In this document: one piece after another, positions 5,970 to 56,818 of the stretch
Numbering within the stretch: position 1 is the stretch's first letter
Layout: every line of letters starts with the position of its first letter
Assembly (NCBI GenBank): GCA_049663345.1
Contig: JBATDG010000075.1
Location: 11,793-75,792 of the forward strand
DNA: 64,000 nt
From: Bacteroidota bacterium
Lineage (GTDB): Bacteria; Bacteroidota; Ignavibacteria; SZUA-365
Direction: 5' to 3'
Notes under the pieces: model-generated
What the model was told of the DNA's origin: nothing
The model's database searches: none
The model's input: the letters and a program-made list of their open reading frames with translations, nothing else
Program-made: the position numbers and the translations under genes

Positions 5970-7526
5970 ATGATGTTTAACCAGGTCGCAACAAATCTTC
6001 TCGCTTTTCCTGCCAGTGCGCGGCTGTCCGAGATCATCAACGATCTCCCGGTTGTCACGCTGATTGGTCCGTGGGATGCCAGCATCGCCGGTATCACTAC
6101 GGATTCGCGCCAGGTAAAGCAGGGCTGGATGTTTGTAGCCACCCAGGGTGAACATACCGATGGCCACCATTTCGCACAGTCCGCCATGGAACGGGGTGCC
6201 AGTTGTGTCGTCGTATCCCTGCTTCATTACCAGACACACCTCCATCACCTGCTCACACCCGCTTTCTGCCAGCATACCGGAACTACCGTCGTTGTTGTGC
6301 AAGACACCCGCGCCGCGGTGGCGCTGCTCGCCGACCGGTTCTACCATTCGCCTTCGCGCGACCTCAAGCTGGTCGGCATAACGGGTACCAACGGGAAGAC
6401 GACGGTTTCGTATCTCATTTCCTCCATTCTCGAGGCCGCTGGCATCCGTTCCGGCCTTCTCGGTACTGTCGCATATCGCATTGGCAATACAGTTCGTCCG
6501 GCGCCGTATACCACGCCGCCTGCTGAGGACCTTCATGCGCTATTCGCAGAAATGCGTTCCGCCGGCTGCAGCACCGCCATCATGGAAGTATCGTCGCATG
6601 CACTTGTGCTCGACCGTGTTCAGGGCATTGAGTTCGACGTTTCGGTGTTCACCAATCTCACGCAGGACCATCTCGATTTTCATCGCAGCATGGCAGCCTA
6701 TCGCGACGCGAAAGCATTGCTTTTCGGCAGCCACACCCGGGGCATCGGATTGATCAACAGTGACGATCCGCATGCAGCCGACATGAAAGGACTGCCCGCA
6801 CGGCGGCGTAAAACTTATGGAATGAAGGGACGTCCTTCATTTCACATGCGCGATCTGCAGCTAAGTTCGAAAGGGAGCAAACTGACCGTCGATTATCGGG
6901 GCGAATCCTATGTCATCACCTCGCCCCTGCTGGGCGGATTCAATGCCTACAACCTGACTGCCGCTTTTGCTACGGGAGTCCTGTTGGGAATTGATCCGGC
7001 GATTGCGATTAAAGGACTCCGGCGTATGAAAAACGTGCCGGGCCGCTTCGAACGGATCGTTTCCGCAGACGGTGTGACCGCTATCGTGGATTATTCGCAT
7101 ACGCCTGACGCTCTTACCAAAGCGCTGCAGACATCGCGCGACCTGCTTGGCGACGGACGGCTTATCGCTGTGTTCGGCTGCGGCGGAGATCGCGATCAGG
7201 TCAAGCGTCCGCTGATGGGAGCCGCAGCGGCAACGCTCAGCGACGTGACCGTCATTACTTCTGACAATCCCCGTACAGAAGATCCGGATGCCATTATCCG
7301 CGATATCCTTGCGGGCGTTCCCGAGGGACTGCCGGTGCAGGTAAAGCCGAACCGGAAAACCGCGATTCACCATGCGCTGCGGATGGCTCGTCCCGGAGAC
7401 ATTGTGCTCGTCGCCGGGAAGGGACATGAGAATTACCAGATCATCGGCACGACGCGCCGTCATTTTGATGACCGTGAAGTCGTGCGGGCGTTCTTCGAAA
7501 GCAAGCGCGGAGGAGTGAAGGCATGA
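5970..7526 (+). CDS. murE: UDP-N-acetylmuramoyl-L-alanyl-D-glutamate--2,6-diaminopimelate ligase
   Basis: GITGTNGKTT P-loop of the Mur ligase family. The DNPR motif (SDNPRTEDP) is diagnostic for meso-DAP-adding MurE. Confidence 0.9.
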   Translation: MMFNQVATNLLAFPASARLSEIINDLPVVTLIGPWDASIAGITTDSRQVKQGWMFVATQGEHTDGHHFAQSAMERGASCVVVSLLHYQTHLHHLLTPAFCQHTGTTVVVVQDTRAAVALLADRFYHSPSRDLKLVGITGTNGKTTVSYLISSILEAAGIRSGLLGTVAYRIGNTVRPAPYTTPPAEDLHALFAEMRSAGCSTAIMEVSSHALVLDRVQGIEFDVSVFTNLTQDHLDFHRSMAAYRDAKALLFGSHTRGIGLINSDDPHAADMKGLPARRRKTYGMKGRPSFHMRDLQLSSKGSKLTVDYRGESYVITSPLLGGFNAYNLTAAFATGVLLGIDPAIAIKGLRRMKNVPGRFERIVSADGVTAIVDYSHTPDALTKALQTSRDLLGDGRLIAVFGCGGDRDQVKRPLMGAAAATLSDVTVITSDNPRTEDPDAIIRDILAGVPEGLPVQVKPNRKTAIHHALRMARPGDIVLVAGKGHENYQIIGTTRRHFDDREVVRAFFESKRGGVKA

Positions 7527-38622: not shown

Positions 38623-38721
38623 TCCTCGGTATGAAGCCCTCGGATACGGAATATTACGATATGATATTCAGAAGTATGGTTTTATATTACGGGAAATATT
38701 TCCTGTAAATAAGAGCTCATT

Positions 38722-41700
38722 ATGACAATAATGCTGCGGTGCTCAAGGTGCAAGGTCGTTCTCGTTTCAGCCTTCATGTTCTTCCTCAGTCCCGCAGCAA
38801 CCTTCGCCTCGATTGCCATCGATGTCGAGGGAATCGAAGGGCTGACGCTCGAGGTGCGAGGGAATGATTACCTCGTCAGCGTCACTGACACTTTTCATCT
38901 GCACGGTATGAAAGTCAATCCTTCGGGATTGACTTTGCAGTATACAGCAGCTGACACCTCCTTCCATATCTACGGCGCGGCAGAGTTTATTCTTGGAACG
39001 GATACGCTATCGATCTCGCTCGGGGCATCTGCGAATCCGGGAATCATCATCGACGACGGGAAGCTTGTGCTGGTCGAAGTCTCCATTACCGGTGATTTCC
39101 GTTTGCGCAAGCTGCACATCATTCCCGTTGATCTTTCCTTCGACTGGATCGCCGGAAGTCATGCCTATTCCATGTACGGCGACATCACGGTAATGATCGA
39201 AACGGACAGCCTCTTCGCTACACTGGGTGATGCCGCCCATCCGGGCATCGTAATCACGGATGGCGTCATAGACACGATCGACGTCAGCATCAGCGGCAAA
39301 TTCTCACTGAAAAGCCTGGCGATCAAACCGGATTCCCTCACCTTTGTCTATGACCGTGCTGCCTCTCAATACAAGATATTCGGCAGCGTGGAGGTCGATA
39401 TCGAAAAGGATACGATTGACGCGATGCTTGGAACGGCGAAGGACCCCGGGATCACCATCACGAACGGGGCACTCGACCATATTTTCATCCTGGTCTCGAG
39501 CAAATTCGAGTTGAAGAAGCTCACCATCAAGACGGATTCGCTGGGGATTGCCTGGCAGAAAGGCCTGGCAGGGAATGTGTTTCATCTATTCGGCAAGGTG
39601 AAAATTGAAATCGAATCCGATACCATCGCCTTCGATTTCGGAACTCCGGTAAAACCAGGGCTGGTTTATAAAGACGGGAAAATTGACTCGCTGAAAATCT
39701 CGACGACCGACGATCTGCACTTCGCGGGTTTCAAAGCCGGGACGAAAAACCTGACGCTCGAATACAGCGATTCAGTATATCATATATGGGGACAGCTGTT
39801 TTTAAAGAAATTCTGGAGTGCGCTTATCGATCTGGGTACCGGACCGGGTTCCGGCGTCACAATCGATGCATCGCAGAAGCCAGCGAAGATTACCATCAAT
39901 CATGCGAAATTCGATCTGGCGGATATTGATCTGGGGCCGATAACACTGAAAGACATCGATCTCGTGCTGGATAAGAATCGCGTCCAGAGCGCTTCGATTT
40001 CACTCGAACTTCCTCCGGGCTGGGAAATCGATGCCGGCGTCGCATTCAAGCTGGTGAACAATGCCCTCGAAGTTGATTCCATCGGCATCACATGGGAAAC
40101 CGACAAGATCTCCGAAGCAATCGAAATTCCTGGGACCGGCGCATTCATCGTGCGGCTCGACGGCGGTGTCTCCGGGCTTGAAAATCCCCATGATTTCAAA
40201 CTCAACGGCGGCATCGACATCGTGTTCGGCGGCCCCTTCACTATCAAGGGGGTCGGCGAAGTATCCCTGCTTTATCTCAATGCCGGGGTAATCATCTCAC
40301 GCTCCGAATTCAAGCTCACTGCCGGCGCAATGATGGGGGCATACAAGAAAAGTGGAACATGGACTCCGGTGCTCGGTGATGGCTTCCTCACATTTGATTT
40401 CCTCTGGGGGAATTCCTACTCCATTGTCGGCGACCTGAATATTCCTTCGGATCCGTATACAATGATCGCAGCCGCTCTGTCAGCAAAGCTTTCCAGCACA
40501 GGCGCCTTCAATGCAAGTGTCAGCGTGGCGCTGCAGCTGCCGGAAGTTGTGCCGGTGATCGGGGGACATAAGTTCGCGGAGGCCGACGGCCTTGTCCACT
40601 ACGATAAGAATGATCCGAGCAGCTTCGCGGCGGGCTGGGCCAGTCTTGATCTCGGATTCTACACTGTCAGAGGCGGCATCAAATACATTTTTCAGCAAAA
40701 AGATTTCGTTACGATCGGTTCTGACGGCATCGACGACCTGAAGACTGAAAATCAAACGCTACCGGATTCCGATCCCAGATACTGGGATTTTCTTCACATC
40801 AATGTCGATAATGCCAATCCGCTCCTCATTCAGGTGAAAGTGAAATTCAAGCAGGTTTTGCCGAAATTCTACTTCGATACCTTCTATCCGATAGCCGTCG
40901 GGAAAGTGAATTATTCTCCGATGTACATCGTCTCCGGCGCTGATCTTATCAGCAGTTCGGGCATGAATCTCACAACCATTCCGACCTATACGTGTAAGTG
41001 GATTCCTCAATCCGACAGCGTTCTTTTTTATATCATGGCGCCAGGGTATGCATCGAGTTCCAGGGCCACGCTTCCCACAGGACAATACACTATCGAGTTT
41101 GCCAACAACGTCGGCGCAGATATGATCGAGAGTTACGCGGTACATAAAATATACGATGCACCGTGGGCGGTGTGGACCTACCTCTATAGCTACTTCACCG
41201 ATGCTTCCGGACCGCTCGCCAATGCGATGATCACGCCCAAACTTGGGTATCACACGCGTTCCGAAGTCTATGATATTGATTCATCAACCGTGCGCATGTT
41301 TTTCACAAAACACAGCACGGATAACGGGACTCTTCTCAAGACCGTGAACTATGCCGATTATTGGGGGACGTATCCCCCCGACGGCGAATATCTCAAGATC
41401 GAAGGCGTCGATTTCCCGACGACGCTTGCCCGGGGCGACAGCCTGTTGCTTTACCTGACCATAGACGACGGCATTAATGCGATGTACAAGTCGCCGGTGC
41501 AGCTTGCGGCTTTCCGGCCCCCGTTCAATGCGAATGTCAGCATTACCGGATTTCCTGCTTCCGCGGCATCCGGGATTGAGACTATGCTGTATATTCAGAA
41601 TCCCGCAGATAATGCATGGTACCCTGCGGACACACTGAAGCACTTCACCAATGCGGCAGGGGATGTGTCCTTTCCCTACTGTCTCAAGATCAATACAAAC

Positions 41701-41844
41701 GTCAAGTTCCAGTTTGACATCCCGATGGGATATGAAGTGGACCCGGCATCAACATATCAAAACGGGCAGGCGCTGCCGGTGAGCAATATCAATGCCGACT
41801 GCGGAAAATATGTAACGATTCAGCTGCGGAAAACGCAGAAATAG
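38722..41844 (+). CDS. large secreted protein with five ~60-aa tandem modules (hypothetical)
   Basis: Signal peptide MTIMLRCSRCKVVLVSAFMFFLSPAATFA. Repeated module G(x)A(x)(N/H/D)PGI(I/V)ITDG(x)(I/L)D(x)(I/V)xVS(I/V)SG(K/D)F(x)LK(x)L(x)IK(P/T)DSL(T/G)... five times in the first 350 aa. 1040 aa. Confidence 0.5.
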   Translation: MTIMLRCSRCKVVLVSAFMFFLSPAATFASIAIDVEGIEGLTLEVRGNDYLVSVTDTFHLHGMKVNPSGLTLQYTAADTSFHIYGAAEFILGTDTLSISLGASANPGIIIDDGKLVLVEVSITGDFRLRKLHIIPVDLSFDWIAGSHAYSMYGDITVMIETDSLFATLGDAAHPGIVITDGVIDTIDVSISGKFSLKSLAIKPDSLTFVYDRAASQYKIFGSVEVDIEKDTIDAMLGTAKDPGITITNGALDHIFILVSSKFELKKLTIKTDSLGIAWQKGLAGNVFHLFGKVKIEIESDTIAFDFGTPVKPGLVYKDGKIDSLKISTTDDLHFAGFKAGTKNLTLEYSDSVYHIWGQLFLKKFWSALIDLGTGPGSGVTIDASQKPAKITINHAKFDLADIDLGPITLKDIDLVLDKNRVQSASISLELPPGWEIDAGVAFKLVNNALEVDSIGITWETDKISEAIEIPGTGAFIVRLDGGVSGLENPHDFKLNGGIDIVFGGPFTIKGVGEVSLLYLNAGVIISRSEFKLTAGAMMGAYKKSGTWTPVLGDGFLTFDFLWGNSYSIVGDLNIPSDPYTMIAAALSAKLSSTGAFNASVSVALQLPEVVPVIGGHKFAEADGLVHYDKNDPSSFAAGWASLDLGFYTVRGGIKYIFQQKDFVTIGSDGIDDLKTENQTLPDSDPRYWDFLHINVDNANPLLIQVKVKFKQVLPKFYFDTFYPIAVGKVNYSPMYIVSGADLISSSGMNLTTIPTYTCKWIPQSDSVLFYIMAPGYASSSRATLPTGQYTIEFANNVGADMIESYAVHKIYDAPWAVWTYLYSYFTDASGPLANAMITPKLGYHTRSEVYDIDSSTVRMFFTKHSTDNGTLLKTVNYADYWGTYPPDGEYLKIEGVDFPTTLARGDSLLLYLTIDDGINAMYKSPVQLAAFRPPFNANVSITGFPASAASGIETMLYIQNPADNAWYPADTLKHFTNAAGDVSFPYCLKINTNVKFQFDIPMGYEVDPASTYQNGQALPVSNINADCGKYVTIQLRKTQK

Positions 41845-49710: not shown

Positions 49711-49996
49711 GCTTCGGGGTATACGCCTGCTCGTTGAGATCAAGACGACGACGTGAGCGGAGGGCCTGCCAGTAATCGGGTTCTTATCAGGGCTCTCCAA
49801 ATAGGTCCAAACTGAATCCTGGAACGACAAGTACATTGCGCTGCATGGCCGAGTAGGATAGATCTTCACTCGTTACTGTTTTCGTACCGACCGTCTTTGG
49901 GGAGAAAGCGATGCAACTCATAATTGCAATGCAGCAAGGTATTTTTCAAGCTCGTTTCCAGCTTGCGGAAATATATAAAAACTTGTATGTTTCTCC

Positions 49997-50335
49997 ATGA
50001 GATCGCTCATATTTGTTGGATCCAGTCTAGCGGATCTCAGAGCGTTCCCTGAAGCCGTCCGGAGAGAGGCAGGATTCCAGTTGCACGCTGTGCAATGTGG
50101 TGACGAGCCATCCGATTGGAAGACGTTGCCTTCGATTGCCCATGGTGTGACTGAAATTCGCATACACTCAGCAGGCGAGTGGCGAATTATTTACGTGGCA
50201 AAGTTCAATGATACGCTCTATGTGCTTCATTGCTTCAGGAAGAGGACGAGAAAAATTCCTAAGGTCGATGCAGCAATCGTAAGATCGCGTTACAAGGAAA
50301 TTGGAGACCGAAAATGGCAACAAAACAAAACATAA
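49997..50335 (+). CDS. higB: type II toxin-antitoxin system toxin, HigB/Gp49-like (RelE/ParE superfamily)
   Basis: LADLRAFPEAVRREAGFQLHAVQCGDEPSDWKTLPSIAHGVTEIRIHSAGEWRIIYVAKFNDTLYVLHCFRKRTRKIP matches the Gp49/HigB pattern. Followed by an overlapping XRE antitoxin gene. Confidence 0.75.
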   Translation: MRSLIFVGSSLADLRAFPEAVRREAGFQLHAVQCGDEPSDWKTLPSIAHGVTEIRIHSAGEWRIIYVAKFNDTLYVLHCFRKRTRKIPKVDAAIVRSRYKEIGDRKWQQNKT

Positions 50336-50604
50336 CGGCCTCAAGCGGCAACGTGTTTCTTGATCTCGGGTTCGATTCCAGCGAGGCTGCAGTGCTGCAG
50401 ATGCGTGCGCGCTTGATGAGTGACTTACGTCAATACATCGAGACGAACAGTCTGACGCAGACACAGGCCGCTGAGCTTCTGGGCATCACACAGTCAAGAG
50501 TGTCCGACCTGGTGCGGGGCAAATGGCAGAAATTCAATCTGGAGATGTTGATCACGCTTGAGGCGCGAATCGGACGAACAGTGAAGATGGATTTTGCCGC
50601 CTGA
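50314..50604 (+). CDS. higA: HigA-like antitoxin, XRE-family HTH
   Basis: LTQTQAAELLGITQSRVSDLVRG HTH. Overlaps the toxin 3' end by 22 nt, in toxin-first (HigBA) order. Confidence 0.7.
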   Translation: MATKQNITASSGNVFLDLGFDSSEAAVLQMRARLMSDLRQYIETNSLTQTQAAELLGITQSRVSDLVRGKWQKFNLEMLITLEARIGRTVKMDFAA

Positions 50605-51127: not shown

Positions 51128-53437
51128 TTACCCCCGAAACCCGAACAATCCCCCAGTTTTCTCAAAAGCCCCCTGGCTTTCCTGTTCGCAGGCTCCTACC
51201 AGATCTTCCATTGTAAGCTTGTCGCCGCGGGAGGCAGCGGTGCGGAGGGCGTTTGCGGCGGCGATGGCGATCTGTCCTCCGGTGAACGTAAAGCGCTCGG
51301 AAAGACGCTCAAAATCGACCTCCGGGGTGCGGGGAACGCTCACGGGAATATGCCCTTTCCACAACGCAACGCGGGCTGCCATGTCGGGCGCGGCGAAAGA
51401 GATCTTGTAATCAAAGCGGCGGCTAAAGGCGTCGTCGAGGGATTCCATGAGATTGGTAGTGGCGATCAGGATTCCCGGGAAGCGCTCGAGCTGTTCGAGC
51501 AGGATGTTCTGCAGCCTGTGCTCGGTCTGGTCGGTAGAACGTCCGCCGCCGCCGCTGGACTCCCGTCTCCCCATTAGCTGGTCGCATTCGTTGAGCAGAA
51601 GCACAGGCGGCTTTTCACTGACGCGCATGAGCCGCGCATAGGAAGAGAACATCCGCTGAAGCTGGCTTTCGCTGCCGCCGTACCATTTCGAAAGGATTTT
51701 CGTGGCATCGGTTATAAGCAGATCGCGTCCGAGAGAGGCGGCGAAGGCCTCGGCGGTGTAAGTCTTACCGGTTCCTGGAGGACCGTGGAACAGCAGCAGC
51801 ACCGAGCCGCTGGGACGCGTTGCCGTGACGTGCTCAATTCCCCAGGCACGCAGGCGTTCGAGCTGTTCGCCGTGAACTGATCCCATTGCGACGTCGAGAC
51901 TCTTCCGCAGCTCAACGGGGAGCACGGCGCTGTCGAGGTTGTGTCCCGGTTGCCGGCGTTCGAATAGCTGCGATCCGTCGAAATCCGCGGCCTCCTTACT
52001 CTCAAGGGAATTTTCTTCCAGAATACGTTGAAGAATGGAGTCGGGGATTGTATAGTCGCTGCTGCCCATGAAGCCCTCCTCGACGTCGATGAGTCCATGT
52101 TTGCGCAGCGGCGAACCATCGCGGAAATAGCGCTGGCAGCGGAAGCCCTTAAAGTAGTCAGTTCCCCCAAGCGCCTCGGTAGCGTTCTGTATACCAACTC
52201 CGCCGCCTTTGAGGCCGGCGTAGAGGGCGAGTCCGAGTATGATGCGCTCGTTGACGTCGAGTTCCATGTCCCGCGCGATCTGCTCGAAGGGATAGACGGT
52301 TCCGCTTTCGCCTATGCGCCGCAGCAGCGACTGCACTTCCGGCAGCTTTTCGGCCGCTTCGCCTTTTCTCGGTCTTCGGCGTCTCCTCCGGAATTGGGGC
52401 GGAAGGTGGGAATTCTCCTCATCGTTCATCAGGAACTTTGCTACGTCGCACCAGGCAGAAAGAAACGCTTCATTGTTTTCGAATGCGCTTTCCGCCGGCT
52501 CCGCTTCGCTGTGCCGGAAATTCCGCGGAGAATCGCCTCCATTGACAAGCCAACTGCTGAGGGATTCGTCAATCACGACATCCTGCCGCATGAGAGGACC
52601 CACTCCATCAAGTTCAATAATTCCGTTTGCGATAAGAGTGCCGTCGCCCTCGAAATAGCCGCGATAGGTATAGCGGTCGAAGAGATCTCCGCTGCCGGCG
52701 ATTTCAATCAGGTCATGCACCTCAGGCAAATCCCCTTCAAGTTCGCCGCGCAATACAAGCAGCAGCATCGTCCAGTCGCTGCGGTCGAGATTGAGTTCCT
52801 GCGCGAGAGCCTCGAGCGGAGGCAGCGGATCAGTGAGAGAGCCCTTTCGACGCAGATAGGCATACTTGCTCTCGGCTGTGTTTCCTTCATCTGTTTTCTC
52901 CGTCGAGGCGCCCAGCTTTTTGCGGGAACGCCCACCTTTCTGAAGATCGCGGTTCTCAAGGAGGAGATCCAAGTAGGAGAAGCAGTCCTGCAGGTACGAT
53001 TTATTGGAAGCATAGCCCATTTGTTCGAGCGCTGGATCGAAGTCGGGGTCCTGCAGCCGCAGAGCGATCCGCAGCTGCCGCTTCTCGCTGCCCCGCAGCG
53101 CGGCGAGCGTATGGACGTCGGAAGGACCTTCATTTCCGCTGCCGTCGAGCACGGCGATATACTCCCTTTCAGCCAATGAAGCAAGCACAACATCCCAACG
53201 CAGGCGGAGGTGATAATCCTTCGCGGCGGCCTGCAGATGGCCGATATCGGTCAGCAGGTTGCCTCGCTGTGTTTCGCGGGAAAGCACGGCCAGCGCCGCC
53301 AGCTCCTCTTCCGAACAGGGGTGCGGCAGCAGTTCCGCACAGTTTCCCATTCCGCCGCGGATCTGCTTCCTGTCGTTGTCTGACAGGGCCTCAGCCAGCG
53401 AATCCAGCGCTTCGAGAATTTCTATTTCTGAACACAT
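51128..53437 (-). CDS. AAA+ ATPase (classic AAA clade) with ~500-aa uncharacterised N-terminal region
   Basis: C-terminal AAA module: Walker A GPPGTGKT, Walker B VLLLNECDQL, second region of homology ATTNLMESLDDAFSRRFD. The N-terminal 500 aa have no motif I recognise. 769 aa. Confidence 0.75.
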   Translation of the reverse strand: MCSEIEILEALDSLAEALSDNDRKQIRGGMGNCAELLPHPCSEEELAALAVLSRETQRGNLLTDIGHLQAAAKDYHLRLRWDVVLASLAEREYIAVLDGSGNEGPSDVHTLAALRGSEKRQLRIALRLQDPDFDPALEQMGYASNKSYLQDCFSYLDLLLENRDLQKGGRSRKKLGASTEKTDEGNTAESKYAYLRRKGSLTDPLPPLEALAQELNLDRSDWTMLLLVLRGELEGDLPEVHDLIEIAGSGDLFDRYTYRGYFEGDGTLIANGIIELDGVGPLMRQDVVIDESLSSWLVNGGDSPRNFRHSEAEPAESAFENNEAFLSAWCDVAKFLMNDEENSHLPPQFRRRRRRPRKGEAAEKLPEVQSLLRRIGESGTVYPFEQIARDMELDVNERIILGLALYAGLKGGGVGIQNATEALGGTDYFKGFRCQRYFRDGSPLRKHGLIDVEEGFMGSSDYTIPDSILQRILEENSLESKEAADFDGSQLFERRQPGHNLDSAVLPVELRKSLDVAMGSVHGEQLERLRAWGIEHVTATRPSGSVLLLFHGPPGTGKTYTAEAFAASLGRDLLITDATKILSKWYGGSESQLQRMFSSYARLMRVSEKPPVLLLNECDQLMGRRESSGGGGRSTDQTEHRLQNILLEQLERFPGILIATTNLMESLDDAFSRRFDYKISFAAPDMAARVALWKGHIPVSVPRTPEVDFERLSERFTFTGGQIAIAAANALRTAASRGDKLTMEDLVGACEQESQGAFEKTGGLFGFRG

Positions 53438-53485
53438 AACGCCTCACTTGTGATTACAGTCTGTAATACAAGTTAAGGTCCAGAA

Positions 53486-53504
53486 TGTCAGATGGTGACA
53501 AACA
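53486..53504. promoter_or_regulatory. palindrome TGTCA-N5-TGACA (+TTCT on the minus strand), ~45 nt upstream of the AAA+ ATPase start
   Basis: Plus strand tgtcagatggtgaca at 53486-53500. Minus-strand reading is TGTCAccatcTGACAttct. A near-identical site lies in the WYL regulator's own upstream region (56800-56818). Confidence 0.45.
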
Positions 53505-53523
53505 GATGAACTACATCCGTACA
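53490..53523. repeat. 34-bp direct repeat, copy B (agatggtgacaaacagatgaactacatccgtaca)
   Basis: 29/34 identical to 55759-55792. The two copies flank the low-GC hybrid histidine kinase gene. Confidence 0.7.
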
Positions 53524-53618
53524 GGCGGTACATTTTTTTTGGTGCTGCGAAAAAAAAGCTGCAGACGGATGCTCTCGCGCTATTTGTCTGCAGCAATTGG
53601 ATAAGGGGAAGAACTTGT

Positions 53619-55469
53619 TCAACGGATCTGCAACTGCTCCCTGAAGTACTTATCGACTAAGGATAGCAGATCATTCTTTTTAATGGGCTTGGAGATATAG
53701 TCGTTGCAGCCTGATTCAAGCGCTTTTTCTCTGTCACCGGTTAATCCGTAAGCTGTTTGTGCAATTATGACAACATCAGGATTAAACTTCCGGATTTGCC
53801 GCGTCGCTTCATATCCGTTCATCTCGGGCATTTGAATGTCCATCAATATCAGGTCGAGATCGGGGTTGTTGCGGCAGGCTTCAACTGTTCCAACTCCTGT
53901 CCTGGCCTTCAAGATATTTTTGCTGAACCTGCTTACCATTATTGATAAATATTTTTCCGATGTTTCATCGTCCTCGGCAATGAGTACTTTCAACCCTAAA
54001 TCTGCAGCTGGGGCGATACTATCTTCAACAGAGCCCGAAGCCGTAATTTCGATACCGGCCCTCTCTTCCTTCTTGACATGATAAGGCAAGGTGAAATAAA
54101 ACGTTGAACCCACGCCGGGTTCGCTTTCCACCCAGATCCTGCCGCCAAGCATTTCTATGTATGATCTGGTAATCGCCAATCCCAGGCCCGCACCTTGTCT
54201 TGCCATTTTATCTTCGATATCGGCCTGAACGAAGCGCTCAAAAATGGCCTCCTGTCTGTCCTTTGGAATTCCAATCCCAGTGTCTTTCACGAAGAACTGC
54301 AGCGACGGAACAGCTTCCGCGGCTGCAAAGCCATATCCGAATTCTATGGAACCTTCGTCGGTATATTTAACTGCATTCTTGATGAGATTGGTAAGAATGG
54401 CAAATAATTTTTCCCTGTCGGTAATAATAGCTGCTTCCTTCGCAGACAATTTGCTGCCAAGGGAAAGTTGTAATCCTTTGGCTTCCGCCTCGGGTTTGAA
54501 AAAGGTGCAAATGTAATCAAGCTGCTCATTTACATTCGATTCGTCCAGATCCAATTTCATCAGGCCGGATTCTATTGTTGAGATGCTGATTATATCGTTG
54601 ATGATATTGAGCATTCGTACGCTGGCATTTTCTATAATACCGATATACTCCTGCTGCTGCTCGCCGGTAAGATCAGCCGCTTTCAGCAATCCTGCAAAGC
54701 CGACGACGCCATTCATGGGAGTTCTGATTTCGTGGCTCATGTTCGCCAAAAAGGCTGACTTAAGGCGGTCGCTTTCTTCGGCCCTTTCCTTGGCCATTTG
54801 CAGCTCGTTGGTCCGCGCTTCTACTGTCTTTTCGAGGTCATTATTAATCGCTTCAACACGTGATTTTTCTCTGTCAAGTTCGTAATTCAGGAAAAAGTTG
54901 TGACGCGCGTAATATTCAATATTGTAGGAAGCGAGCATCCCGATGATATTCGCACTGATAAAGAAGAAGTTGGTGTTAATGAGCACAATATGCGAGGCAT
55001 GTGAGTAGAATATCGCGCCAAGATTAAAAATCAACAGTGTAGTCCATCCCGCAATCGATGCAAGGAAAAACCGGAGTTTAATAAAGAAGTATCCTGCCGC
55101 GAAGATCAGCATCATGCCGGCATAGTAAGCATAATTTTCGGGCACAAACATAGTCATTACAATAACGCCCGATCCGGCTACAATAAAACTTATGAACAAT
55201 AGCCCTTGCCAAATCTTTTGAAATACTCTGGTAAAAGACAGAAGAAATACTATGGTTAGTGTTGGAATGACGAAGACAAATCGGATTATGTGGAAATGGA
55301 CGGCATAATCCGGGAACATTATTGAATCCAGATACCCAAATATTCCGTAAAGCAATACAACTAATACAAAGGAGACTCTGAATTGATTGACAGAGTCAAG
55401 GTAGTATTGTTTCTGGAAGGCCTCTTCCTCCTTTCCGGGAAAGGCCAGGGTCATTTTATTATATTGCAT
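53619..55469 (-). CDS. hybrid sensor histidine kinase / response regulator with N-terminal polytopic membrane sensor
   Basis: About 6 TM helices, coiled coil, HisKA ([16 protein letters not shown]), HATPase_c (G-boxes [14 protein letters not shown]), C-terminal REC (LIAEDDE...LMDIQMP...KP). GC is ~42%, against ~60% for neighbouring genes. Confidence 0.85.
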
Positions 55470-55758
55470 CGTTTTTGGGCAATCGTGTTTCGTTAAGGTA
55501 CTAAGAGCGAAGCTCGCATCCCCGCAAGCTGCAGGCAGAGATGAAACTCTGTGTGTAGTGATGCTGGATAATCCACCGACGCCCCTGTTCGAATAGCTCC
55601 GCCATATCAGTACCAGTAAGAACTAGAAAATGATTTTATTGTAGGAATAGCGGGAAAAATATTGAAATCGATCATCATTAGCAAGAACGCGGTTCTGTTC
55701 ATGACGCATGATTGCTGTTCGGGCGGTAGAAATCACTATACGTGAGGTGCCCGATATA

Positions 55759-55792
55759 AGATGTTGACAACCAGATGAACTGTATCAGTACA
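55759..55792. repeat. 34-bp direct repeat, copy A (agatgttgacaaccagatgaactgtatcagtaca)
   Basis: 29/34 identical to 53490-53523. Overlaps the stop codon of the WYL regulator gene. Confidence 0.7.
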
Positions 55793-56747
55793 GACTGCTC
55801 ATTCTATTTATGGCGCTGCGCATCGAGTCGCGGAGGGAGACGGGTTCGAGCACCTCGGCATATTCGCCCCAGCGGAGAATCCAGGCGATGAGCTCATTCG
55901 ACGGACCCAGACGCATGCGGAGTATGAGGTCGCCGTTTTCGTCGTCGGACATTTTCTGGCTCGGGTGCCACTGGCGGGACTCGATCGACCCGCGCACAGT
56001 TTTCGCGAAGCGGATCACCACATCCTCGGGAGTCTCATACCAGATGCCGAAACTGTCCTTCAGAACTTCGCTGAGCGAATATGCGGGATCGCGTTCGAAA
56101 GTGTCGTCTGTCAGCTCCACCGTTCGGAAGCGCGGGAGGGCGAAATAGATCGAATTGTTATAGGGAGGAACTCGTCCGATAATATAGAGAGCGCCGTTGT
56201 GCAGGAGGAGGGAATAGGGATGCAGCTTGTATTGCTTGCTGCGGTAGCGCACCTTCGCCACGCGGCGGTGCACGATGGCCTCGAAAAGGTCGCGCAGCAT
56301 ATCCGATCGCTCGCTGAGATCCGCCAGGCCGGGCTGGTGGACGTGAAGGAGCCCGCCCGAAAAGGCGTCCGGCACAGCTATGGCATCGTCGGGCAGCAGC
56401 TGAGTGAGTTTGTCGAACACACTGAGCATATCAGTCTCCAAGCGGGTGCCGGCAAACACTTCGCGGAACTGAAGCAGCAGCACGGCGGCCAGCACCTCCT
56501 CAGGCGTCAGCAGCTGGGGAATGAACTGGAAGCTGCGATCGAGGGAGTAATATTTTTCATTGTGTGGGCCCGTCCGCAATCGCAGCGGAATCGACGCGCC
56601 TTCTATATGCCTGATCGTGCGCTGAATCGTCTGCTTCGATTCCTCCTCTCCGAAATAATCATGAAGTTCCTTCACCGTCACGTCGTCGTGCGTACTGAGT
56701 CTCTGCAGAATACGGAGCGCACGGATGAGCATCGTCATTTCGGCCAT
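55785..56747 (-). CDS. WYL-domain transcriptional regulator (wHTH - WYL - WCX architecture)
   Basis: N-terminal winged HTH (LIRALRILQRLSTHDDVTVKELHDYFGEEESKQTIQRTIRHIE). Central domain with ...AKVRYRSKQYKLHPYSLLLHNGALYIIG... resembling the WYL core. C-terminal extension. 320 aa. Confidence 0.55.
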   Translation of the reverse strand: MAEMTMLIRALRILQRLSTHDDVTVKELHDYFGEEESKQTIQRTIRHIEGASIPLRLRTGPHNEKYYSLDRSFQFIPQLLTPEEVLAAVLLLQFREVFAGTRLETDMLSVFDKLTQLLPDDAIAVPDAFSGGLLHVHQPGLADLSERSDMLRDLFEAIVHRRVAKVRYRSKQYKLHPYSLLLHNGALYIIGRVPPYNNSIYFALPRFRTVELTDDTFERDPAYSLSEVLKDSFGIWYETPEDVVIRFAKTVRGSIESRQWHPSQKMSDDENGDLILRMRLGPSNELIAWILRWGEYAEVLEPVSLRDSMRSAINRMSSLY

Positions 56748-56799
56748 GGGGTCCTCACGGTTGCGGTTTAAAACCAGCTCGGAAGGTACGGGTGCAGTC

Positions 56800-56818
56800 T
56801 GTCATCCACTGACATTCT
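56800..56818. promoter_or_regulatory. palindrome TGTCA-N5-TGACA-TTCT, ~50 nt upstream of the WYL regulator start (candidate autoregulatory operator)
   Basis: tgtcatccactgacattct in the divergent intergenic region between the WYL gene and the TMEM175-like gene. Matches 53486-53504 in both half-sites and the TTCT flank. Confidence 0.45.

Follow-up and report, generated by a model that had tools for sequence, protein, structure and literature searches.

How a kinase gene of conspicuously low GC content came to lie between two GC-richer genes, with an imperfect direct repeat on either side of it, is the question raised by a locus in the genome of a Bacteroidota bacterium (Ignavibacteria; SZUA-365), which was analysed within a stretch of 64,000 nucleotides of contig JBATDG010000075.1 (the window, to which all coordinates refer). 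The locus comprises three genes, all on the minus strand: a gene for a winged helix-turn-helix (wHTH)-WYL-WCX regulator (WYL), a hybrid histidine kinase (HK) gene and a gene for a WHD-AAA+ ATPase (AAA+). The first-pass annotation read the kinase gene as a horizontally acquired cassette bracketed by 34-bp repeats, which may have split an originally contiguous WYL-AAA+ unit by an unclear mechanism. The present analysis supports this reading and makes it more precise, in that the repeat extends over ~75 nt and contains a putative operator conserved in the family. Most probably, a foreign HK gene was inserted in the junction between the WYL and ATPase genes with duplication of ~75 nt of that junction, and the redundant halves of the two copies then decayed.

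The two 34-mers lie at 53490-53523 and 55759-55792 and are identical at 29 of 34 positions, exactly as first annotated. A degenerate pattern for both, with at most three mismatches allowed, matched these two places in the 64 kb and nothing in 100 shuffled sequences (0/100), and a scan of JGI metagenomes with a 22-mer from the junction core returned one chance match, inside a PD40-repeat coding region, so that the 34-mer does not behave as a dispersed repeat. A repeat search lengthened the match to 65 nt at 74% identity, and a gapped alignment lengthened it further to ~75 nt, between 53476-53549 (copy A, next to AAA+) and 55745-55820 (copy B, next to WYL), with 59 of 77 columns identical and four gap columns. 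The local alignment score of the repeat is 56, compared with a maximum of 28 among 300 shuffles. In gene orientation, three elements make up the duplicated segment: the final 12 codons of WYL with the stop codon, a spacer of 11 nt, and the palindrome TGTCA-N5-TGACA, which has extended half-sites. The two copies are ~77% identical, and the longest exact stretch common to both is the 10-nt AGTTCATCTG, which has mismatches on both sides.

Each copy retains a different part of this junction. Copy B overlaps the WYL stop codon (55785-55787) and copy A overlaps the palindrome TGTCAGATGGTGACA (53486-53500) upstream of AAA+, and both overlaps had been noted at the outset. The true end of the regulator, ...RSAINRMSSLY-TGA, is carried by copy B; it is homologous to the ends of WYL orthologues, and the intact C-terminus stops at the same residue as in the homologues. 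The corresponding part of copy A, CGCAGCACCAAAAAAAATGTACCGCCTGTACGGA, is a relic that matches the real WYL end (RSAINRMSSLY-stop) in 27 of 36 columns at a fixed register and has lost both stop codon and reading frame, with two 1-nt deletions and GGA where TGA stood. Two of its frames read RST.. and ..KKMYRLYG, and the RLY of the latter resembles the WYL end of a related locus, L014 (RKMKRLYA-stop). The palindrome, in turn, is perfect in copy A; in copy B its right half-site now reads TTATA and the bases after it have diverged.

By its conservation across related loci, the palindrome is the predicted operator of the WYL regulator in this family (R-box). A motif of the form TGTCA/TATCA/CATCA-N5-TGACA/TGATA/TGATG lies ~45-50 nt upstream of the AAA+ start in each related locus, and the same motif is found upstream of the WYL start wherever sequence exists: locus L008 has R-boxes before both genes, L004 has one before each with that of AAA+ degenerate, and L014 has one before AAA+, its WYL upstream region lying off the contig. 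A position weight matrix (PWM) was built solely from the sites of L004, L008 and L014, and 63,978 window positions were scored with it. The site upstream of AAA+ (R-box A) ranked first at 24.2 bits and a site upstream of WYL (R-box C) ranked second at 22.8 bits, the best unrelated position in the window reaching 14.4 bits; the in-register site of copy B scored 3.1 bits and ranked 65 of 63,978. Exact TGTCA-N5-TGACA occurs at two sites in the 64 kb, at the WYL and AAA+ promoters, and in L004 and L008 the sequences upstream of AAA+ align with R-box A and those upstream of WYL with R-box C. R-box C is presumed to be an autoregulation site of WYL, and the WHD-AAA+ ATPase is presumed to be the regulator's target.

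The surroundings of the R-box are conserved as well. A TAnnTTG box follows the R-box by 6 nt, in the same register, in 4/4 AAA+ promoters (TAACTTG, TAGATTG, TAGATTG and TATCTTG), the box after R-box A being TAACTTG in gene orientation, and the AAA+ promoter palindromes begin with or follow TTTG (TTTA in L004 and ATCA in L014). We take the TTTG and TAnnTTG boxes to resemble the -33 and -7 elements of Bacteroidota, their 23-nt spacing being presumably slightly longer than in Bacteroides. Neither copy B nor any part of the 330 nt preceding HK contains a TAnnTTG box, the window background being 0.27 per kb per strand. Because the operator sits between the TTTG and TAnnTTG boxes, we infer that the WYL regulator would act as a repressor of AAA+. 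Elsewhere in the window, a weaker PWM match of ~13 bits, GGAATATTACGATATGATATTCA at 38648-38670, is among the top five and lies 52 nt upstream of a 1040-aa open reading frame (ORF) at 38722-41844 (+); this site could be one more target of WYL or a chance match.

Full-length relatives of the ATPase are very few. The family counts three proteins in a database of 5.8 billion, the window's own included, the other two being P0002 (51% identity) and P0003 (49%), and a third relative, L014 (53%, on a 3-kb contig), came from GTDB genomes; a profile search of genome contigs found none with the single AAA+ protein and L014 only with a three-sequence alignment. The 530-aa N-terminal part of the ATPase (51848-53437, -) is likewise present in three proteins of the same database, again with the window's own included, and gave 26 matches in a representative library of 1.84 billion, with ~6 full-length cluster representatives. 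In 3/3 lineages with an AAA+ orthologue, a WYL gene lies upstream of AAA+ and there is no HK, and the WYL protein of the window is 70% identical to that of L004 and 69% identical to that of L008. From WYL stop to AAA+ start, L004-L007 have 401 nt, in which one ORF of 33 to 48 aa is called, and L014 has 166 nt; in L008-L010, four other, unrelated genes lie between the two in a region of lowered GC, among them a gene for a 333-aa product weakly similar to PDC-S26, a P-loop gene and a duplicated fragment of the latter. This gene order shows that the WYL-AAA+ pairing is conserved, that the gap between the two genes is variable, and that HK is present there only in the window lineage. The proposal that an insertion split a WYL-AAA+ unit is supported by these three HK-free lineages together with the WYL relic in copy A. 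The search for an empty site in relatives, which the first-pass annotation had suggested, bore out one half of its expectation, namely a WYL gene upstream of AAA+ with no HK; the other half, a close relative with a single repeat copy, was not found in the collections searched.

The composition of the HK gene sets it apart from the rest of the window. Its GC content is 0.442, against 0.588 for AAA+ and 0.578 for WYL (first estimated at ~42% and ~60%), and this deficit of 13-14 points affects all three codon positions as well as synonymous codon choice. Among 44 window ORFs of at least 150 aa, HK is the lowest in GC at the first, second and third codon positions (GC1, GC2 and GC3), with a GC3 of 0.506 compared with 0.54-0.76 for the others, and its synonymous-codon fit is the worst of 36 long ORFs scored (z = -3.4 relative to the other 35), making it the outlier of the window in the GC and codon profiles. 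Its nearest homologues share 68-72% amino acid identity in an alignment that covers 99% of its length, and the source names among them include Prolixibacteraceae, Bacteroidales and Lentimicrobium. Five homologue loci lie on contigs of 39-41% GC, in which the HK gene itself has 35-37% GC and a GC3 of 0.30-0.37. A synteny of DoxX, HK and PIF1 helicase is present, whole or in part, in 4/5 of these contigs: L018 and L020 have the full order of a 518-aa DoxX protein, HK and a convergent PIF1/HRDC helicase, and L012 and L019 have HK and the PIF1/HRDC helicase. This arrangement looks like the native context of HK, and both the DoxX and PIF1 helicase neighbours are absent from the window. DNA similarity between the window and the homologue loci sets in 4-31 nt upstream of the ATG and breaks off ~50 nt short of the stop codon; because it is confined to the coding sequence, the leader and terminator flanks are untraceable to a donor. 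The GC3 of the window HK (0.51) lies between the donor-like ~0.34 and the host ~0.65, which, with the 77% identity of the junction copies, fits an old and partly ameliorated acquisition. Composition, codon fit, the low-GC contigs of the homologues and the absence of their synteny here all support the horizontal origin proposed earlier, and suggest that the HK gene was acquired from a low-GC Bacteroidia lineage.

Nor is the arrangement an artefact of assembly. Across the WYL-HK junction, the window is matched at 100% identity by three independent assemblies, a contig of a metagenome-assembled genome (NCBI) and two from Logan, of which two span the whole 8-kb region and the third stops inside the kinase gene. 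The longest exact run between the copies, at 10 nt, is too short for a k-mer misjoin.

The insert between the copies (53550-55744; 2195 bp, GC 0.444) consists of a leader, the HK gene and a terminator. No transposase or integrase gene, the lack of which had been remarked on from the start, was found among the neighbouring genes, listed over ~8 kb to one side and 10 kb to the other; the insert ends have no terminal inverted repeats, the locus has no tRNA or tmRNA gene, and no plasmid relatives were found beyond generic kinase motifs. The 275-nt leader contains no Rfam family, no terminator, no TAnnTTG box and no credibly placed sigma-70-like site, its RNA structure is unremarkable (z = -1.0), and no terminator was found between WYL and HK. 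The HK terminator forms a centroid hairpin of -18.8 kcal/mol and abuts copy A directly. On the most economical view, transcription of HK probably starts at the auto-repressed WYL promoter and reads through, in which case the HK terminator would insulate AAA+ and leave it under direct WYL control.

The following history would account for these features. In the ancestor, WYL would have lain directly upstream of WHD-AAA+, with its stop codon ~15 nt from a BrxR-type R-box that sat between the TTTG and TAnnTTG boxes of the AAA+ promoter, and a second R-box would have been present upstream of WYL. A 2.2-kb foreign piece carrying one intact hybrid HK gene with its own terminator would then have entered the junction, and ~75 nt, comprising the last 12 WYL codons, the stop codon, the spacer and the R-box, would have been duplicated on entry. 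The redundant halves would later have decayed, leaving the WYL relic in copy A and removing the right half-site and the -7 box from copy B, and the HK gene would have drifted part-way to the composition of the host. Excising the insert and one copy gives WYL, its stop codon, ~15 nt, the R-box, TAACTTG and AAA+, with ~78 nt between the genes. The insertion would have been tolerated because the duplication left WYL with a complete 3' end (copy B) and AAA+ with its operator and promoter (copy A). As judged from these alignments, the repeat is the old WYL/ATPase junction and not the end of a mobile element. The insertion itself is a horizontal acquisition of an ordinary kind, whose junction duplication is unusually long and informative. 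Of this history, the duplication, the WYL relic, the conservation of the operator, the foreign composition of HK and the relatives without HK are observed, whereas repression by WYL, joint transcription of WYL with HK and the way in which the duplication arose are inferred.

Two routes to the duplication are possible: (a) duplication in situ, when a break with widely staggered ends was filled in or when replication switched template, and (b) Campbell-type or site-specific integration via a homologous junction segment, with a recombinase acting in trans or since lost. Route (a), or an unspecified illegitimate event, is preferred because the native HK loci are without such a site and the scan of JGI metagenomes found the site nowhere else; the similar identities of the three segments of the repeat do not discriminate between the routes.

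Several points weigh against an insertion with junction duplication. No transposase makes a target duplication nearly as long as ~75 nt, and the locus encodes no enzyme that would explain it. Even in the donor-like contigs, genes of the HK family are intrinsically ~5 GC points poorer than the genome around them, which means that foreignness does not account for the whole GC deficit, and the partial amelioration of the gene is an assumption. The three repeat segments are 75%, 85% and 67% identical (a manual count on the gapped alignment) and do not differ significantly, and the differential decay of the copies consequently rests on the functional elements lost and not on rates. The copy number of the repeat and the singleness of HK are those of the 64-kb window. 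Lastly, the collections searched yielded no empty site in a close relative, their nearest AAA+ orthologues being 50-53% identical, and the state before insertion is thus reconstructed and not observed.

The 2.2-kb segment might instead be a decayed or trans-mobilised integrative element that entered by site-specific recombination, its attachment (att) site being a homologue of the junction between WYL 3' end and R-box. The copies would then be hybrid attL and attR sites that differed from the start, the relic by AAA+ would be the displaced WYL 3' end of the host, and the element would have brought the working WYL 3' end with it, as islands that insert at gene 3' ends do. Imperfect direct repeats that bracket an insert, one of them overlapping the 3' end of a gene, are consistent with such an entry, and the 10-nt exact stretch could be the crossover core; the relic (...CGCCTGTACG...) is, moreover, closer to the WYL end of L014 than the window's own WYL end is, and the gap between regulator and effector in L008 also holds inserted genes. 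That L008 insert, however, has no comparable flanking repeat (an alignment score of 19, at noise level), and the insert of the window is a single gene plus terminator, with no integrase within it or in the 8-10 kb around it. No R-box is present in the native HK loci L012 and L013, the flanks of L012, L013 and L018-L020 have no homology to the repeat, and the site has no further occurrence in the JGI metagenomes. An att-type origin is considered unlikely.

Some genomic islets and integrative elements sit at the 3' end of a target gene and are bracketed by imperfect direct repeats. The locus is like att-flanked islets in that DNA of foreign composition lies between imperfect direct repeats, one of which overlaps the 3' end of an intact gene, but it differs in having no integrase, excisionase or tRNA gene, a single-gene cargo, a 10-nt exact core, and a repeat that is the regulator/operator junction of the host itself. 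The insert holds HK alone and none of the neighbouring genes listed encodes an integrase, which departs from an integrase-mediated island. Three further types of element were considered and rejected. Transposons and insertion sequences also duplicate their target directly on both sides, but their duplications measure 2-15 nt rather than ~75 nt, and the locus has neither inverted repeats nor a transposase gene within 8-10 kb. An integron cassette does not fit a repeat that has no GTTRRRY core (GTTGACA fails the motif) or a locus with no intI-like gene. A dif/Xer site, as used by integrative mobile elements exploiting Xer (IMEX), is not in keeping with a palindrome that has a 5-nt spacer and recurs upstream of both genes in related loci, and cumulative GC skew makes no turn here.

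A bolder reading concerns the gap itself, whose contents differ between lineages: the window has a kinase there, L008 has P-loop and PDC-S26-like genes, and L004 has small ORFs. The gap could be a recurrent cargo slot of a rare, uncharacterised stress or defence module of Bacteroidota, with a dedicated junction-duplicating mode of entry that leaves ~75-nt repeats and with HK co-transcribed with the repressor. If so, a membrane two-component sensor would be wired into a WYL-controlled response. We regard this reading as doubtful.

Copy B could also be no scar at all, but a working second operator or promoter that places HK under WYL control and has been kept by selection. The best-conserved part of the repeat is indeed the left half-site of copy B, TTGTCA, with the 11 nt upstream of it, and BrxR can bind and repress via a single half-site, R-BOX2 of pEFER having one poorly conserved half (PMC9122601). 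Such an adaptive duplication is nevertheless improbable, given that copy B scores 3.1 bits where the two real sites reach 23-24 bits, is without the TAnnTTG box present after the R-box of all four AAA+ promoters, and lies 275 nt from the HK start compared with ~45-50 nt for real R-boxes, and that the duplicated segment includes 12 WYL codons without regulatory use. It is highly improbable that HK is an old resident whose low GC reflects a membrane-rich composition and whose flanks are independently conserved operators, or that the locus is a chimeric metagenome assembly: the HK family does lie ~5 GC points under its surroundings even in native loci, and R-boxes are conserved cis-elements that recur within a locus, yet the GC deficit extends over all codon positions and synonymous choice, all related WYL-AAA+ loci are without HK, the similarity of the copies runs past the R-box into WYL coding sequence, and the three assemblies, with their 10-nt limit on exact runs, are identical across the junctions that each covers.

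Insertion with junction duplication, the preferred explanation, makes the locus a clean and internally dated case in which one foreign gene settled within a regulator-target pair without breaking the pair; each flanking gene would have kept the part of the junction that it needed, and the redundant halves would have decayed in complementary fashion. Current understanding is unchanged by this case, which offers a good annotation and a modest lead.

The coordinates of the features are collected in Table 1.

Table 1. Predicted features of the WYL-HK-AAA+ locus, in window coordinates.
Feature	Position	Strand	Basis
WHD + AAA+ ATPase gene, 769 aa	51128-53437	-	Pfam AAA 91.7 bits, WHD PF22977 51.6 bits
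Junction copy A: intact R-box and decayed WYL 3'-end relic	53476-53549	-	Gapped alignment to copy B
R-box A, AGAATGTCA-gatgg-TGACAAACA, ~45 nt upstream of AAA+ ATG	53482-53504	.	PWM rank and alignment
Relic of the last 12 WYL codons and stop codon, in copy A	53516-53549	-	In-register alignment to real WYL end
HK intrinsic terminator: 9-bp G+C-rich stem GCUGCAGAC/GUCUGCAGC (53558-53594) and U8 (53550-53557)	53550-53594	-	RNA fold
Hybrid histidine kinase gene, MASE8-HisKA-HATPase_c-REC, 616 aa (611 aa from ATG at 55454)	53619-55469	-	Pfam
Leader between copy B and HK start, 275 nt, GC 0.455	55470-55744	-	Motif, Rfam, terminator and fold scans
Junction copy B: real WYL 3' end and stop codon, decayed R-box GTTGTCA-acatc-TTATATCGG, without TAnnTTG box	55745-55820	-	Alignment
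wHTH-WYL-WCX regulator gene, 320 aa	55785-56747	-	Pfam WCX 64 bits, WYL 34.4 bits
R-box C, AGTCTGTCA-tccac-TGACATTCT, ~50 nt upstream of WYL ATG	56796-56818	.	PWM rank and alignment

The regulator has an architecture of N-terminal (w)HTH, WYL and WCX. Its WYL and WCX matches exceed the Pfam cut-offs of 21.8 and 23.9 bits, respectively, and HTH_11, at 19 bits, is under its cut-off of 25 bits; the protein also matches the PADLOC WYL model (E = 1e-29) and PDB WYL-domain proteins (E ~1e-8). The inverted repeats bound by BrxR are 11 bp long and have a 5-bp spacer; R-BOX1 precedes brxR itself and R-BOX2 the operon under its control, and BrxR represses by occluding the promoter (PMC9122601). Repressors of the wHTH-WYL-WCX type such as CapW leave DNA when the WYL domain binds single-stranded DNA (PMC11662680). 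The locus shares with the BrxR/CapW family (PMC9122601, PMC9122589, PMC11662680) the HTH-WYL-WCX order, a palindromic operator that has a 5-bp spacer and overlaps the promoter, and the placing of one box before the regulator gene and of a second before the regulated downstream gene; the related locus L008, in addition, lies in a BREX island, near BrxL and PglZ. In silico, with a cross-validated PWM, the operator was found both in the regulator's own promoter and in that of the adjacent regulated gene, and the regulator and its boxes would be expected to behave like BrxR or CapW. The differences are that the regulated gene here encodes a rare WHD-AAA+ ATPase with no full match to any defined defence system, that the half-site (A/T)TGTCA is specific to this small Bacteroidota group, and that a foreign HK sits between regulator and target. 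A conserved putative operator and a probable Bacteroidota-type promoter are now defined for this very rare two-gene module of WYL and WHD-AAA+, which could be a new WYL-regulated stress or defence unit; the contexts of the window and of L004 are not defence islands.

PADLOC IetA and NCBIfam IteA match the ATPase over the AAA module alone, at 86 bits compared with a cut-off of 510 bits, and an AlphaFold2 model from a three-sequence alignment was poor (predicted local distance difference test score 47). The nearest named homologues outside the family are in extracellular contractile injection system (eCIS) loci. The eCIS ATPases (Afp15/Pvc15-like) also combine the WHD variant PF22977 with a classical AAA module, but the similarity is limited to the WHD and AAA parts, covers ~25-35% of the window protein, and the window has no eCIS genes. 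Distant homologues with WHD (PF22977) and AAA are encoded at 5001-6983 of L016 and 5001-7013 of L017 (Streptomyces pactum; ENA/NCBI contig), in eCIS loci with Pvc16_N, eCIS_core, sheath and gp19 tube. The domains of HK lie in one intact polypeptide (HisKA 68 bits, HATPase_c 88 bits and Response_reg 80 bits), with MASE8 on record for this protein.

Smaller features of the related loci and of the window were also recorded. Within the genes between WYL and AAA+ in L008, a 258-nt direct repeat of 84% identity is present (6343-6600 and 7146-7403), a 113-aa ORF there duplicates the 5' part of the 234-aa P-loop gene, and the adjacent island contains BrxL, PglZ and a DDE transposase. ADP-ribosylglycohydrolase and Bflower_2 genes are divergent from WYL in L004 (4917-6491) and L008 (2533-4066) and may be further members of the module in other lineages; where related loci have genes divergent from WYL, the window has a TMEM175-like gene. 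The 8-mer ACAGACTG has four copies in the window compared with 0.9 expected, a number reached by one of 100 shuffles. One copy (53457-53464, -) forms part of the palindrome ATTACAGACTGTAAT, which separates R-box A from the ATG of AAA+, another (55790-55797, +) lies within the last WYL codons, and a third (56795-56802, -) abuts R-box C. A toxin-antitoxin pair, HigB-like (Gp49) and HigA-like (HTH_37), is encoded at ~49900-50600, ~0.5 kb past the 3' end of AAA+, in a stretch of lowered GC (0.48-0.50).

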